Shown piece by piece: positions 11,380-19,051 of a DNA stretch of 64,000 nucleotides (within the stretch, counting starts at the first letter, position 1; each line of letters begins with the position of its first letter). The position numbers and the translations under genes were made by a program. The notes beneath the pieces were generated by a model that was not told the DNA's origin, made no database searches, and worked only from the letters and a program-made list of their open reading frames with translations. This stretch comes from a virus (taxonomy: Duplodnaviria; Caudoviricetes): the IMG/VR virus record IMGVR_UViG_3300028591_000082, one strand, 5' to 3'.

Positions 11380-11410
11380 TTATGTAAAATCGTTCCTATT
11401 AAGTAACTTT

Positions 11411-11484
11411 TAGTTCCTTGTGGGTTTGAACCACAGACCTTTCGGTTATCAGCCGAATGCTCTAACCAGCTGAGCTAAGGAACT
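11411..11484 (-). tRNA. tRNA-Ile(GAT)
   Basis: TTCGG-CTGATAA-CCGAA. Confidence 0.92.
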
Positions 11485-11539
11485 ATATACGGGCTGTTAA
11501 GAAGTCAAATCTTCCAAATAGCCGACAGACCAATAATGA

Positions 11540-11643
11540 CGGGGAACGCCTGAATCGAACAAGGCACCTCAAAAATCTCTCATCAATGAATTACAGAGCA
11601 AGACATCAACAAGAGTAGCGTACTACCATTATACGAATTCCCC
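11540..11643 (-). ncRNA. tRNA-like RNA with a 12-bp stem replacing the anticodon arm
   Basis: GGGGAAT/GTTCCCC acceptor; D arm CGTA/TACG; TTCGATT T loop. Confidence 0.55.
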
Positions 11644-11888
11644 AAAAAAACATACTACTTGCCAAAGTAGTTTCAGATGCAGGTGTTGCATCCGTTGATT
11701 ACCGAGAAAATCCTTATCGGACTGCACTGGATTCCAACTTGTCACCAATAACTCAACTTAACGCTCGTCAAGCCTAGTGCCCAGCCTTTCGGGGTACCTT
11801 GGGACGTCTCCCTCAAAACGGTACTTACTACGATTATCTACTTTCTCAGTCAAAGGTTGTCGTCCTGGCAACATCAACTAATGTTTAG

Positions 11889-11960
11889 CGGGCTCTGCTG
11901 GAGTCGAACCAGCCCACGCAGATTAACAGTCTGCAGTACTAACCGATATACGAAAAGCCC
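11889..11960 (-). tRNA. tRNA-Asn(GTT)
   Basis: GCAGA-CTGTTAA-TCTGC. Confidence 0.92.
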
Positions 11961-12154
11961 AAAAACTGCGATGTTGTGGCTATCCGCCTGCCTTTATCAT
12001 GTCTGCAAATTTCCCTGAGTTAAATTTGCTTTATTTAGGTGGAATGAGAACCACCACTACCTTTACAGGGTAGCACGCACAGTCTAATTCGTCAAACTAC
12101 TTTAAGCGCTATTTTCATTTAACTACTACCTGGCGACTTGTTAAATGCGATTCG

Positions 12155-12228
12155 TCTGTATGGTAGGATTCGAACCTACGGAATCTTGCTCCCAAAGCAA
12201 GTGGATTAGACCGCTCTCCCACACACAG
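12155..12228 (-). tRNA. tRNA-Pro(TGG)
   Basis: CTTGC-TTTGGGA-GCAAG. Confidence 0.9.
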
Positions 12229-12394
12229 ATAGCTAATTGCAAAATACTATATAGCTCATAATAATGTACATTTATGCCCGCAGTTTCGAGATTAATCCTA
12301 AGTCAGTACTATTCTTCCCAACTCGTATAGTTCGTCACACTTAGAAACAAATTAAGCGGCTATGAACTACTTCTCCCATATTTTGCAATTATAG

Positions 12395-12466
12395 AGCCTC
12401 CACTAGGAATCGAACCCAGATTCCGAGATTACAAATCACGTGTACTAACCGTTATACGATAGAGGC
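12395..12466 (-). tRNA. tRNA-Thr(TGT)
   Basis: CGTGA-TTTGTAA-TCTCG. Confidence 0.85.
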
Positions 12467-12555
12467 ATATTTGGTGAACCTGATTTCAGACTTCCCACCA
12501 AGAAGCCGCGATTTCAGACAGAACAGAGCACGCTTCAGATCAATCTCTGTCGTCG

Positions 12556-12636
12556 TGGAAGATATCAGAATTGAACTGATCTTTACTCGTCCCTTCCATT
12601 GTAGGCTTTAAGACGAGCCTCACCATAAGATCTCCC
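12556..12636 (-). ncRNA. tRNA-like RNA with enlarged anticodon domain
   Basis: GGGAGAT/ATCTTCC acceptor; ATCAG-TTCAATT-CTGAT T arm; CTCGTCTT/AGGGACGAG stem. Confidence 0.5.
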
Positions 12637-12639
12637 AAA

Positions 12640-12888
12640 TTATATATAAGTTCCTCTTTTAAAAGGAAGTTTAACATCTATATGTTCAGCAATAAGAGCA
12701 GCTTCTCCTAAATGCCCAACTACTCTTATTTCGGAAAACCTTTTTGCTTTATCTTTAAGGCATTTTGGAACTTCCACAGTAAAAGTTCCTTTTTTCTCGC
12801 CATCAATATCATAGCAAAGTGATATTTTATCGCCTTCTACATTAACAACTTTTCCTTCCAAAATAAAAGAATTAAGATTTCTTCTCAT
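12640..12888 (-). CDS. short SSB-like OB-fold protein
   Basis: NLNSFILEG...IRVVGHL...IAEHID resembles short SSB paralogs (recalled from spirochaetes, not searched). Confidence 0.5.
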   Translation of the reverse strand: MRRNLNSFILEGKVVNVEGDKISLCYDIDGEKKGTFTVEVPKCLKDKAKRFSEIRVVGHLGEAALIAEHIDVKLPFKRGTYI

Positions 12889-12889
12889 A

Positions 12890-12962
12890 TAGTCCCGAGA
12901 GGAGTTGAACCTCCGTCTCCTCCTTGAAAGGGAGGCGATACTAACCGTTGATCTACGGGACC
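12890..12962 (-). tRNA. tRNA-Glu(TTC)
   Basis: CCTCC-CTTTCAA-GGAGG. Confidence 0.9.
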
Positions 12963-13032
12963 ATAAAACCCTTTTGAGACCAGAAGCACCGCGAAAAGTC
13001 CGCGCCTTACGCTCACAGATCTCTGAGGGTTA

Positions 13033-13105
13033 CATTCCTTGCAGGAATTGAACCTTGCGTTTGTTGCTTGAGAGGCAACTGTCCTTACCATTAGACGAAA
13101 GGAAC
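13033..13105 (-). tRNA. tRNA-Glu(CTC), bulged T-stem
   Basis: GTTGC-CTCTCAA-GCAAC. Confidence 0.8.
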
Positions 13106-13112
13106 ATAAGAA

Positions 13113-13206
13113 TTACCAACTTAAGGACTTGAACCCTAATCCCGCGCCCCTTTTTCCCGCGACCCCACACGGATTTGCTGTCCTTTAGTGAGATCGTTTA
13201 TCGGTA
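13113..13206 (-). ncRNA. tRNA-like RNA (acceptor and T arm only recognisable)
   Basis: TACCGAT/GTTGGTA; TTAGGG-TTCAAGT-CCTTAA. Confidence 0.4.
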
Positions 13207-13384
13207 CTAGGGGGCACTGTGCCCTGTACACCACTTGATAATGAGCTTCCAAAATTAGCCAGCTTCGCTACAGAAACTCCAGTTGTTTCGTTTGCAACCG
13301 AAAAACAACCTTTTTACATACTTTTTATTCGTAAGTATCAAAACGAGTTAGTTTCCGATTTACTTAAACTAACAAATAAGGTGA

Positions 13385-13457
13385 CGGTCTGTGCGAGAGT
13401 TGAACTCGCCATCTCCGCAGTGACAGTGCGGCGTGATAACCGATACACTAACAGACC
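13385..13457 (-). tRNA. tRNA-Asp(GTC)
   Basis: CCGCA-CTGTCAC-TGCGG. Confidence 0.92.
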
Positions 13458-13475
13458 ATAAAATCATTTCTTTTA

Positions 13476-13547
13476 TATCCCAACTAGGATTCGAACCTAG
13501 ATCTCCACTCTTAACGAGCAGAATGCTAACCGTTACACCATTGGAAC
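13476..13547 (-). tRNA. atypical tRNA, nominal anticodon TTA
   Basis: full cloverleaf; loop CGTTAAG (G33, possible C32-G38 pair). Confidence 0.55.
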
Positions 13548-13806
13548 AACCTAAACTAGTAAGAGGGTTAACGCGTATTTCTCTTAGTCGGCTTGAGCAG
13601 GGAAAAGAAAATATGCTCGTGCCTACTAGTTTGGTAGTTAATTAGTCACGCAGACGGCATTTGCCGACACTTCTGGTTTGCCAACTACCTATGCTCACGG
13701 ACTCTAACCGTTTCTTAGTGCATTGAAGTTACAAGTAAGTTTTCCTTACTCTTATATTATACACCGTAAATCTGAATTTAACAGGGTGCATAATTTTTTG
13801 GTTTCG

Positions 13807-13880
13807 TGGAGCGGGGGAGCATCGAACTCCCAACCTCATGATTGCAAATCACGTATTCTAGCCAATTGAACTACCGTCCC
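13807..13880 (-). tRNA. tRNA-Ala(TGC)
   Basis: G3-U70; loop TTTGCAA. Confidence 0.9.
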
Positions 13881-14036
13881 AAATAAAGTGATCTTTTGGT
13901 ATCATACATACAGATACATTATAGCAGGTAATCACATTGAGTTTTTGCAATACAAACAAAAACAACCTTTAGTTCATGTAGTTAGACTTCTACCAACTAA
14001 TCTCGTTCTCCTAGTGTCTAATTCAAACGAGCGGCT

Positions 14037-14125
14037 CGGTTGGATGGAGAATCGAACTCCAGCTACGCTCATCACGCAGGACAATTTTCAAGATTGCTAC
14101 CCATGCCAACTAGGTGTTCCCAACC
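14037..14125 (-). tRNA. tRNA-Ser(TGA)
   Basis: GCAAT-CTTGAAA-ATTGT; long variable arm. Confidence 0.85.
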
Positions 14126-14211
14126 ATTATTCAAACAAAAGAACCTAGTAAAGCATCACGGTACCATTGCAACAATGCATAACGACTTATATACTGATCC
14201 CTTTGTTTTAA

Positions 14212-14293
14212 TGGGCAGTGGAGGACTCGAACCTCCAAGGCACAAAGGCGACAGGGTTACGGCCTGCTCAGCTACCATTACTGTCAACTACCC
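14212..14293 (-). tRNA. tRNA-Tyr(GTA)
   Basis: GCAGG-CCGTAAC-CCTGT (C33). Confidence 0.85.
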
Positions 14294-14602
14294 ATAATGT
14301 CCGATGCGGAGTAGCCGCTTTAAAGGCGCTCGTTGTACACGCACCTAGCTTGCAAGGTCTGGGTTGTTATTCAAAACAGATAGTAATTAGGATTTCTACT
14401 ATCACCTTTACTGGTAGGTACAAGCCGCTAAACTTGCAGTCCTCGCCTTGGCAGTTCTCGGGAAGAGGAGTGCCCCCTTAACCCGCATACTTTTAGTAAC
14501 TACTGCTTAAATTTTCTCTTTAGTTTTTTAACCTTGACATAAGCCAAGGTAGGCTAGACTATCCCTACTCGCTTAGCCTAGCTGGGTCAGAACACACCCG
14601 TT

Positions 14603-14848
14603 TTAGTCAAAATAATACCAATCACCTCTCGGTGAAGGTAAACCTTTTAAGAGATATCTTTCAATCTCTTCGTCTGTACAATCTATAGAAATTTTATTTA
14701 ATTCAGATTTCTGTAGATTTCTTCTCTGCTTACGCTGTTCTGCATGAAAACCTACTACTGATCTTCTGTAGTAACGGTAAGTATATCTCTTTCTTCTTGT
14801 ACAACCACGAGTTCCGTGATCTTGCTTATTAGGTTTATTTTTATACAT
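14603..14848 (-). CDS. small Arg-rich basic protein
   Basis: ORF track; AAGGAG nearby. Confidence 0.6.
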   Translation of the reverse strand: MYKNKPNKQDHGTRGCTRRKRYTYRYYRRSVVGFHAEQRKQRRNLQKSELNKISIDCTDEEIERYLLKGLPSPRGDWYYFD

Positions 14849-14880
14849 AACCTAAGTCATAAGCAACTCCTTTAATTTAG

Positions 14881-14954
14881 TCGGCGTGAGAAGATTTGAA
14901 CTTCCACTTTACAGATTCTAAGTCTGCTCCCTCTACCAGTTGGGGTACACACCG
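14881..14954 (-). tRNA. tRNA-Leu(TAG), short variable loop
   Basis: GCAGA-CTTAGAA-TCTGT. Confidence 0.85.
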
Positions 14955-15042
14955 ATAATCACATTCGTTAGGTAGAATGTGGTAGACCACGCCATGCTTA
15001 CGAATGGCAATTATCCTTAGATACTTCCGTCTAAGTCGGATT

Positions 15043-15126
15043 TGCCAAGAGAGGGACTCGAACCCACAAACTCTTACGAGCACAGCCACCTCAAGGCTGC
15101 GTGTTTACCAATTTCACCATCTAGGC
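15043..15126 (-). tRNA. tRNA-Leu(GAG)
   Basis: CAGCC-TTGAGGT-GGCTG. Confidence 0.9.
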
Positions 15127-15194
15127 ATATAAAAGGGTAAAGCGTGTTAGGCTTCCCCTTAATGATTAAGCTCTTGGCAAAACCATCTCTCTTG

Positions 15195-15278
15195 TCGGCC
15201 TGGAGAGACTCGAACTCTCAATCCTTACGGCGTCCGATCTTAAGTCGGATGTGCATACCAAAATTCCACCACAGACCG
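15195..15278 (-). tRNA. tRNA-Leu(TAA)
   Basis: TCCGA-CTTAAGA-TCGGA. Confidence 0.9.
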
Positions 15279-15335
15279 AAAAATAATGAACGACTTCTAA
15301 TACTGGAAGGAAGTCTAGCAGACGCACAGGACAAT

Positions 15336-15392
15336 AAAAAAGGCTTCTGAGTTTTAACATCAGAAGCCTTAGAATTCGAAATTAAGACTTCT
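15336..15392 (-). terminator. attenuator 2: terminator plus antiterminator
   Basis: terminator AAGGCTTCTGA/TCAGAAGCCTT-TTTT; AGAAGTCTTA, starting at the leader stop, can pair instead with TAAGGCTTCT. Confidence 0.8.
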
Positions 15393-15487
15393 CATGTTAG
15401 ATATGGTTCGTCTGCATCATTATATAATGATGTTGCGAGAGAATTAAGAGAAATAATAGAACTGTAAGTAATAATATTCTTTTCCAT
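15392..15487 (-). CDS. leader peptide 2, MEKNIITYSSIISLNSLATSLYNDADEPYLT
   Basis: TAAGGT RBS; lies between a consensus promoter and the attenuator; codons match downstream tRNAs. Confidence 0.8.
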   Translation of the reverse strand: MEKNIITYSSIISLNSLATSLYNDADEPYLT

Positions 15488-15529
15488 ATCTATACCTTAT
15501 ATTTATATTTATCTTTACGCTATAGAAAA

Positions 15530-15558
15530 ATTATAACATTAAAAAATAAAAATGTCAA
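15530..15558 (-). promoter_or_regulatory. consensus sigma70 promoter
   Basis: TTGACA-17 nt-TATAAT with TG extension; the same class occurs at ~21482-21510, 24633-24661, 63757-63785, 63873-63901. Confidence 0.85.
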
Positions 15559-18681: not shown

Positions 18682-19051
18682 TGGAGGTGCCGAGATTCGA
18701 ACTCGGGTCTTCACCAATTACTATATTAAACACTTCTATACAGGCTTAAAGTCATATTATTGCTTGGAATGACTAATACCATAAAATCTTTAACCTTATC
18801 ATTTAGCCAAAGGATTTGCAGACTTTGATCGCTAAACTATTCCGTTCGTTTACACGCCTTCTAACATCTATAACAGAAAGGAACTGTAAGAAGACGGCTA
18901 GGCTCACGCAGTCCTAGCAAGTTTGAGGTGCTTACGCAGCCATCAAAACTTCTTCGTAGTCGTTGTCGATTACTTTTTTGCCATTTCAAACCATGACTGG
19001 TTATGTACCTGATGTTCAATTTTTCATTGTGAATCGATACCGTTCACCCCC
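18682..19051 (-). ncRNA. ssrA: tmRNA; tag (A)GKKVIDNDYEEVLMAA
   Basis: 5' GGGGGTGAACGGTATCGA; 3' GAAGACCCGAGTTCGAATCTCGGCACCTCCA (G3-U70); internal tag frame ending LMAA-TAA. Confidence 0.93.

Follow-up and report, generated by a model that had tools for sequence, protein, structure and literature searches.

A probable ribosome-coupled attenuator at the head of a phage tRNA block

It has long been asked why phages carry tRNA genes, and the main answers have been codon compensation and the replacement of destroyed host tRNAs. A related question is raised by IMG/VR virus record IMGVR_UViG_3300028591_000082 (Duplodnaviria; Caudoviricetes): what decides when such genes are transcribed? We analysed 64,000 nucleotides of this record (the window), which show a large, AT-rich, phage-like genome with a minus-strand array of ~40 tRNA genes plus a transfer-messenger RNA (tmRNA). 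One block of this array, for Leu, Tyr, Ser, Ala, Asp, Glu, Thr, Pro, Asn and Ile, is headed by a cassette consisting of a promoter, a short leader open reading frame (ORF), an antiterminator and an intrinsic terminator (Table 1). We posit, at a probability of roughly 85% and on the basis of folding models and comparative data, that this cassette is a ribosome-coupled transcription attenuator that acts as a negative-feedback sensor of tRNA supply, in a tRNA-specific form. The phage would thus probably make the tRNAs of the block only when the codons of the leader are read slowly.

What does the cassette contain? The promoter matches the sigma-70 consensus at 12/12 positions, as the first-pass annotation of this DNA had stated for its TTGACA-17-TATAAT boxes, and has an extended -10 TG besides; boxes matching it are seen in L011/L056, L043 and L058 (L numbers denote loci fetched for comparison). 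The leader that the annotation had quoted codon by codon is present in full, encoding 31 amino acids ahead of its TGA stop, and a Shine-Dalgarno-like TAAGG precedes it; most homologous leaders are preceded by AAGG or GGAG. The annotation had also proposed that an antiterminator beginning at the stop codon competes with the terminator. The pairing is real and longer than described: 16 bp and a single G-G mismatch (-17.6 to -18.5 kcal/mol, z -3.7), in which a strand running from five bases 5' of the stop to nine bases 3' of it pairs with the 5' arm and loop of the terminator, whose own stem (-16.3 kcal/mol) leads into a U run ending near 15336. Only 1/1000 dinucleotide shuffles pairs as well, and none of 161 bacterial terminators with the same arms has so strong an upstream partner (mean -5.8, best -13.2, window -15.8). 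A further predicted helix, pairing the ribosome-binding site (RBS) and start with codons 28-30, is not uniform across homologues.

How might such a cassette switch? In the proposed mechanism, host RNA polymerase would start at the sigma-70 promoter and a ribosome would load on the leader. If decoding is fast, the ribosome would reach codon 30 to the stop before polymerase gets to the U-tract and would cover the antiterminator strand, allowing the terminator to form and the RNA to end near 15336. Should any one of the ten tRNA classes that the leader samples be scarce or cut, the ribosome would lag in codons 2-29, the antiterminator would fold first, and polymerase would read into the tRNA block; the new tRNAs would then speed leader decoding and close the switch. 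The leader would in effect be an OR gate for ten amino acids, and a sister cassette in the window would cover most of the remaining ones. What the analysis shows is the parts, the mutual exclusion of terminator and antiterminator, a non-random codon inventory, and conservation with covariation; we infer leader translation, kinetic switching and the physiological trigger alike, the last being, we suggest, tRNA loss in infection, for example via host anticodon nucleases. In a nascent-RNA model, the terminator arm is sequestered with the ribosome at codons 2-29 and freed with it at codon 30 to the stop. Masking the ribosome footprint in equilibrium folding gave no switching for this leader; switching is seen only in the nascent-RNA model. 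The earlier proposal that a ribosome at the stop masks the antiterminator, and that a stalled one permits read-through, thus draws support from the geometry, from nascent-RNA folding and from the comparative data below.

Does the leader name the tRNAs that follow it? At the amino-acid level it does so above chance, in keeping with its initial description as a codon inventory: 29/30 codons stand for amino acids carried by the block's tRNAs, none of the ten being absent (binomial p 6.5e-6, with 58 long ORFs of the window as amino-acid background, where these ten account for 61% of residues). None of 8,039 coding stretches of 30 residues matches as well. If the block is extended to the next cassette, p becomes 6.5e-4; the proximal four amino acids alone give p 0.006, and the distal six are over-represented among the remaining leader codons (p 1.6e-4). 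The sister cassette heads a Val/Phe/Met/Lys/Gln/Leu(CAA)/His/Cys block, a set complementary to that of the first cassette, and its leader matches its own block at 23/29 codons (p 4.3e-6). These matches make up 17/18 codons within the modelled sensing window, which ends at the last codon where a stall leaves the antiterminator intact in a folding model blind to amino acids, and 6/11 after it. The sister leader also uses TTG and CAG ahead of Leu-CAA and Gln-CTG (p 0.002).

Is this design shared? Relatives were reached via a band-7 gene, homologues of a neighbouring 167-aa ORF and DNA patterns, and a mechanical scan of the fetched loci collected 13 cassettes that represent six lineages of phage: two each in the window, the L011/L055/L056 species and L043, four in L045 and one each in L006, L008 and L058, with a further likely cassette, outside the 13, in L069. 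In each, a leader of 24-49 codons starts with ATG, a terminator follows 21-48 nt past its stop, and an antiterminator strand lies between -28 and +15 of the stop; the leader ORF is open in all homologues. In six aligned homologues, 60/60 cells of the terminator are paired, with changes on both sides at four pairs, and in L006 a change in one stem base is matched by changes in its partners in the terminator and in the antiterminator alike. Conservation of the ORF and antiterminator had been set as a check at the outset; since orthologues keep both, and the terminator, with compensatory changes, the lack of conservation that would have spoken against an attenuator is not what relatives display. 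We conclude that the cassette is a real, conserved regulatory element in which attenuator logic would be extended to tRNA genes.

The matching of leaders to blocks is likewise shared. Assignment of leaders to their own blocks beats shuffled assignments (0/200,000 permutations), and in the pooled cassettes 259/325 codons (80%) match inside the modelled sensing window versus 30/73 (41%) after it (p 4e-10), a clustering of mismatches that would be expected if selection for matching acts on the sensing part only. Synonymous choice, pooled over cassettes, follows the anticodons under strict wobble (96 observed versus 70.8 expected, p 9e-7) and under four-way wobble (59 versus 38.4), and it is only on pooling that matching at the codon level is significant. 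The L011 leader, orthologous to the one in the window, contains Val and Gly codons, which the window leader lacks. Gly(TCC) lies in L011's short contig; a Val tRNA was predicted, and Val(TAC) was then found in that block on longer contigs. On contig L056+L197, leader 2 has three Val codons and one Gly ahead of a block 2 that includes Gly(TCC) and Val(TAC); block 1, that of the sister cassette, is without Val, and leader 1 is without Val in its sensing part. In the closest relative, this cassette has gained Val and Gly as tRNAs and as codons alike. In L045 (IMGVR_UViG_3300012983_000032), one array is divided among four cassettes, each with its own amino-acid set. The scan of fetched loci found no convincing cassette in L020, L057, L060 or L062, nor in T5-like KKP_3711, Vibrio phage Luma or Streptomyces phage JimJam, where the array heads perhaps lie outside the stretches scanned. 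The cassette has no significant match in cultured phages, and the terminator pattern finds only ordinary terminators in bacterial genomes, none in a locus with at least three tRNA genes.

Two cultured phages offer a candidate with the same layout. In Xanthomonas phage X1 (OQ427096.1, about 135,560-135,740; L071:7899-8078), an unannotated 39-codon ORF heads a 34-tRNA array, samples 19/20 amino acids (p about 0.03 alone) and is accompanied by a U-tract terminator and by a helix resembling an antiterminator (-23.2 kcal/mol, z -4.9). Phage BUDD (ON758385.1, L195) has an ORF of the same length, with one amino-acid change in a 22-codon core, and a shortened terminator stem. The codon evidence for this candidate is weaker because the array spans nearly all amino acids; the X1 ORF has no clear Shine-Dalgarno sequence, and its leader includes Ser and omits Cys, whereas its array has Cys and no detected Ser tRNA. 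If the candidate is genuine, the cassette design would be open to direct test in cultured phages.

Several observations weigh against a tRNA-specific sensor. At equilibrium the terminator wins (81%), and the switch must therefore be kinetic. The control codons are dispersed over ten amino acids, with no run longer than two codons. The first-pass annotation was correct that the leader has no TTG or CTG and uses only GCA, CCA and ATT for Ala, Pro and Ile, but for this single leader the synonymous match is not significant (p 0.13-0.15). Block ends were set by visual judgement, the codon background is that of this window, and the homologues cannot be treated as independent. Leader 1 of the relative keeps five Lys and two internal Met codons with no Lys or Met tRNA in its block on the contigs read; in strain L055, recombination or assembly collapse between two Ser-like repeats has removed ~4 kb from block 2, and the leader is unchanged; and leader L045b matches its own block weakly. 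Together these three cases imply that the coupling of leader and block is loose on short timescales. The annotation's caveat that a box promoter could drive the distal half of the block also proves well placed: such a promoter (TGCACCCTG-N20-TATAAT) lies inside the block and may bypass the switch for that half, and box promoters recur inside the relative's block (L056 13600, 15099). It may be that the attenuated transcript provides the distal tRNAs at a different stage or boosts their supply. The stretch from terminator to Ala contains no box promoter, and Leu, Tyr, Ser and Ala therefore depend on read-through.

Could the attenuator be real but respond to something more general? If any uncoupling of ribosome and polymerase opened it, the cassette would sense overall translation rate or infection stage, with codons as fine-tuning. 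Untranslated nascent RNA in the model does also keep the antiterminator (free 1.00), the leader has few codons for each amino acid, almost every amino acid is sampled in L058 and in the Xanthomonas candidate, and some leaders retain codons whose tRNAs are absent from their block. Yet a general sensor would not account for split arrays having correspondingly split leaders (the window pair; L045), for Val/Gly codons moving along with their tRNAs, or for pooled synonymous choice following anticodons, and we regard it as improbable. Classical leaders sense ribosome stalling on uncharged tRNA, which raises the question of whether this one times tRNA synthesis to poor host nutrition as an amino-acid-starvation sensor. 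The amino-acid-level signal is indeed the strongest for this leader. However, extra tRNA cannot cure a lack of amino acid, and tRNA scarcity is therefore the likelier trigger; in addition, the TTG and CAG codons of the sister leader indicate tRNA identity. We accordingly give starvation sensing very little credence.

Does the terminator perhaps simply leak? A constitutive leaky terminator could set a fixed tRNA level or mark a processing site. The ORF would then encode a small peptide with a function of its own, and most transcription of the block would come from box promoters, of which the window has 41, one within the block; that the terminator wins at equilibrium would fit. What makes this highly unlikely is that the peptide sequences diverge freely while their composition tracks the tRNA block, that the antiterminator at the stop is conserved in all cassettes, and that the interval from terminator to Ala lacks a box promoter.

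How does a tRNA-supply attenuator compare with known systems? Leader-peptide attenuation is a textbook control for amino-acid genes. The window cassette has the features of a ribosome-mediated attenuator (leader ORF and RBS, matched codons, U-tract terminator, mutually exclusive antiterminator), and its stall logic, in which a stall frees the antiterminator and a ribosome at the stop blocks it, appears in silico. Like ilvL of ilvGMEDA, thrL, trpL, hisL and leuL, it combines a short leader ORF, codons for the commodity concerned, an antiterminator in the ribosome's path, an intrinsic terminator and, as proposed, kinetic coupling. Unlike those enterobacterial attenuators, which control enzymes and use codon runs for one to three amino acids, it is phage-borne, precedes tRNA genes, disperses codons for ten amino acids, has no clear 1:2 protector hairpin and would yield products that directly speed leader decoding. 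Membership in the biosynthesis and synthetase families (trp, his, ilv, thr, pheST) was rejected, given that the downstream genes are tRNAs and tandem control-codon runs are absent. Escherichia coli pheST, with its pheM leader, also places a leader-peptide attenuator over a component of the translation apparatus, but that component is a chromosomal synthetase for one amino acid. T-box riboswitches likewise read out tRNA status through a terminator and an antiterminator, but they bind one uncharged tRNA directly, without translation; a T-box was rejected (no match in Rfam at the gathering threshold, nor with E allowed up to 1), as was a PyrR-type attenuator (RF00515; 28 bits versus a cut-off of 54, E 0.32). 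In the literature searched, outside which most subscription journals fall, leader-peptide attenuation of tRNA genes is not described.

The nearest functional parallel is the trn operon of Anabaena PCC 7120, a silent megaplasmid array of 26 tRNA genes that is governed by the repressor TrcR and induced by translational stress (PMC10272220). It too is an accessory tRNA array under a stress switch, but it relies on a protein repressor at initiation, without a codon-matched leader, whereas the window cassette would be an RNA switch. As for purpose, both tRNA-cutting host defences and phage tRNAs acting against them are documented (PMC11464382, PMC11555353): a viral tRNA counters PARIS (PMC11464382), and the tRNA-Tyr of T5/SP15 counters retron Eco7, with rescue depending on promoter strength (PMC11555353). 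These cases suggest that the likely purpose here is to replace tRNAs destroyed by host defence. The Eco7 study describes a strong promoter and nowhere mentions a leader, an attenuator or a regulated terminator (PMC11555353).

What lies downstream and around the cassette? Every tRNA named in the first-pass annotation is there, but Glu is represented by two genes, and a tRNA-like gene with a TTA anticodon had been missed. The gene for Tyr is atypical: ARAGORN calls it only once the threshold is lowered, and a separate search gives it a weak score of 25.5 bits. That the TTA-anticodon gene is a suppressor or mimic is doubtful; it could not read TGA, the stop codon of both window leaders, and a TTA/TAA-anticodon gene varies among strains of a relative (L197, L200). 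The box promoter pattern is common to L055/L056, gave no hits in L006, L008, L043, L045 or L058 when searched in this form, and probably depends on a phage activator. A conserved 35-nt element between the terminator and the first tRNA is identical in three phages, L011/L056 among them; it precedes tRNA genes whether or not a terminator is present, lying in L044 (L044:10885) between two tRNAs and away from any terminator, and is possibly a processing signal.

The source phage is uncultured and jumbo-class. A 222,557-bp metagenome contig encodes an identical neighbouring protein and has the same tRNA order as the window. The 167-aa ORF beside the leader cassette has no Pfam or PHROG match; a profile search gave 95 homologues, often within or adjoining tRNA arrays (L006, L008, L011, L056, L058), and direct searches with this ORF and with a CCA/poly(A)-polymerase-like gene returned no loci. 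On the flanks of the array are the tmRNA, the CCA/poly(A)-polymerase-like HD protein and an RNA ligase, which would fit a translation-rescue region. A FlaA domain in the relative L006 hints, weakly, at a spirochaete host.

Table 1. Positions of the leader cassette, its tRNA block and neighbouring features in the window
Feature	Position	Strand	Remarks
Sigma-70-type promoter, TTGACA-17-TATAAT	15558-15530	-	extended -10 TG
Shine-Dalgarno-like TAAGG	15495-15500	-	9-13 nt upstream of leader ORF
Leader ORF	15487-15392	-	31 codons, TGA stop; sensing window codons 2-29
Antiterminator 5' strand	15399-15383	-	last two codons, stop and 9 nt past it
Shared strand	15371-15355	-	antiterminator 3' strand; terminator 5' arm plus loop
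Intrinsic terminator and U-tract	15370-15334	-	stem 15370-15340; predicted 3' end ~15336-15334
Conserved 35-nt element	15323-15289	-	between terminator and first tRNA
tRNA-Leu(TAA)	15194-15278	-	
tRNA-Leu(GAG)	15042-15127	-	
tRNA-Leu(TAG)	14880-14954	-	
tRNA-Tyr(GTA), atypical	about 14213-14294	-	C at position 33
tRNA-Ser(TGA)	14036-14126	-	
tRNA-Ala(TGC)	13806-13880	-	
Internal box promoter, TGCACCCTG-N20-TATAAT	13790-13756	-	1 of 41 in window
tRNA-like gene, TTA anticodon	13475-13548	-	G33; inside block
tRNA-Asp(GTC)	13383-13458	-	
tRNA-Glu(CTC)	13032-13106	-	
tRNA-Glu(TTC)	12889-12963	-	
tRNA-Thr(TGT)	12394-12466	-	
tRNA-Pro(TGG)	12154-12228	-	
tRNA-Asn(GTT)	11888-11960	-	
tRNA-Ile(GAT)	11410-11485	-	final tRNA of matched block
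Sister cassette	8541-8390	-	leader 8541-8449; terminator 8418-8395
167-aa ORF	16062-15559		beside leader cassette
tmRNA	18682-19051		flanks tRNA array
CCA/poly(A)-polymerase-like HD protein	4489-3095		flanks tRNA array
RNA ligase	30761-29484		flanks tRNA array

What would such a switch mean for phage biology? The sensor interpretation implies that phage tRNA genes are a demand-driven backup, widens attenuation to include tRNA genes in a direct feedback loop, and accounts for unannotated ORFs of 25-50 codons at the heads of phage tRNA arrays. It also suggests that the leader cassette offers a compact, recodable biosensor of tRNA availability. On balance we favour the broader idea that these cassettes form a widespread and as yet unpublished class of regulators in phages: modular homeostats for tRNA, with every block placed under a leader that spells out its own codons. 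Such regulators would provide an inducible, isoacceptor-aware counter-defence against host immunity that destroys tRNAs. If this is true, the leaders would be a readable record of the tRNAs that run short in infection.

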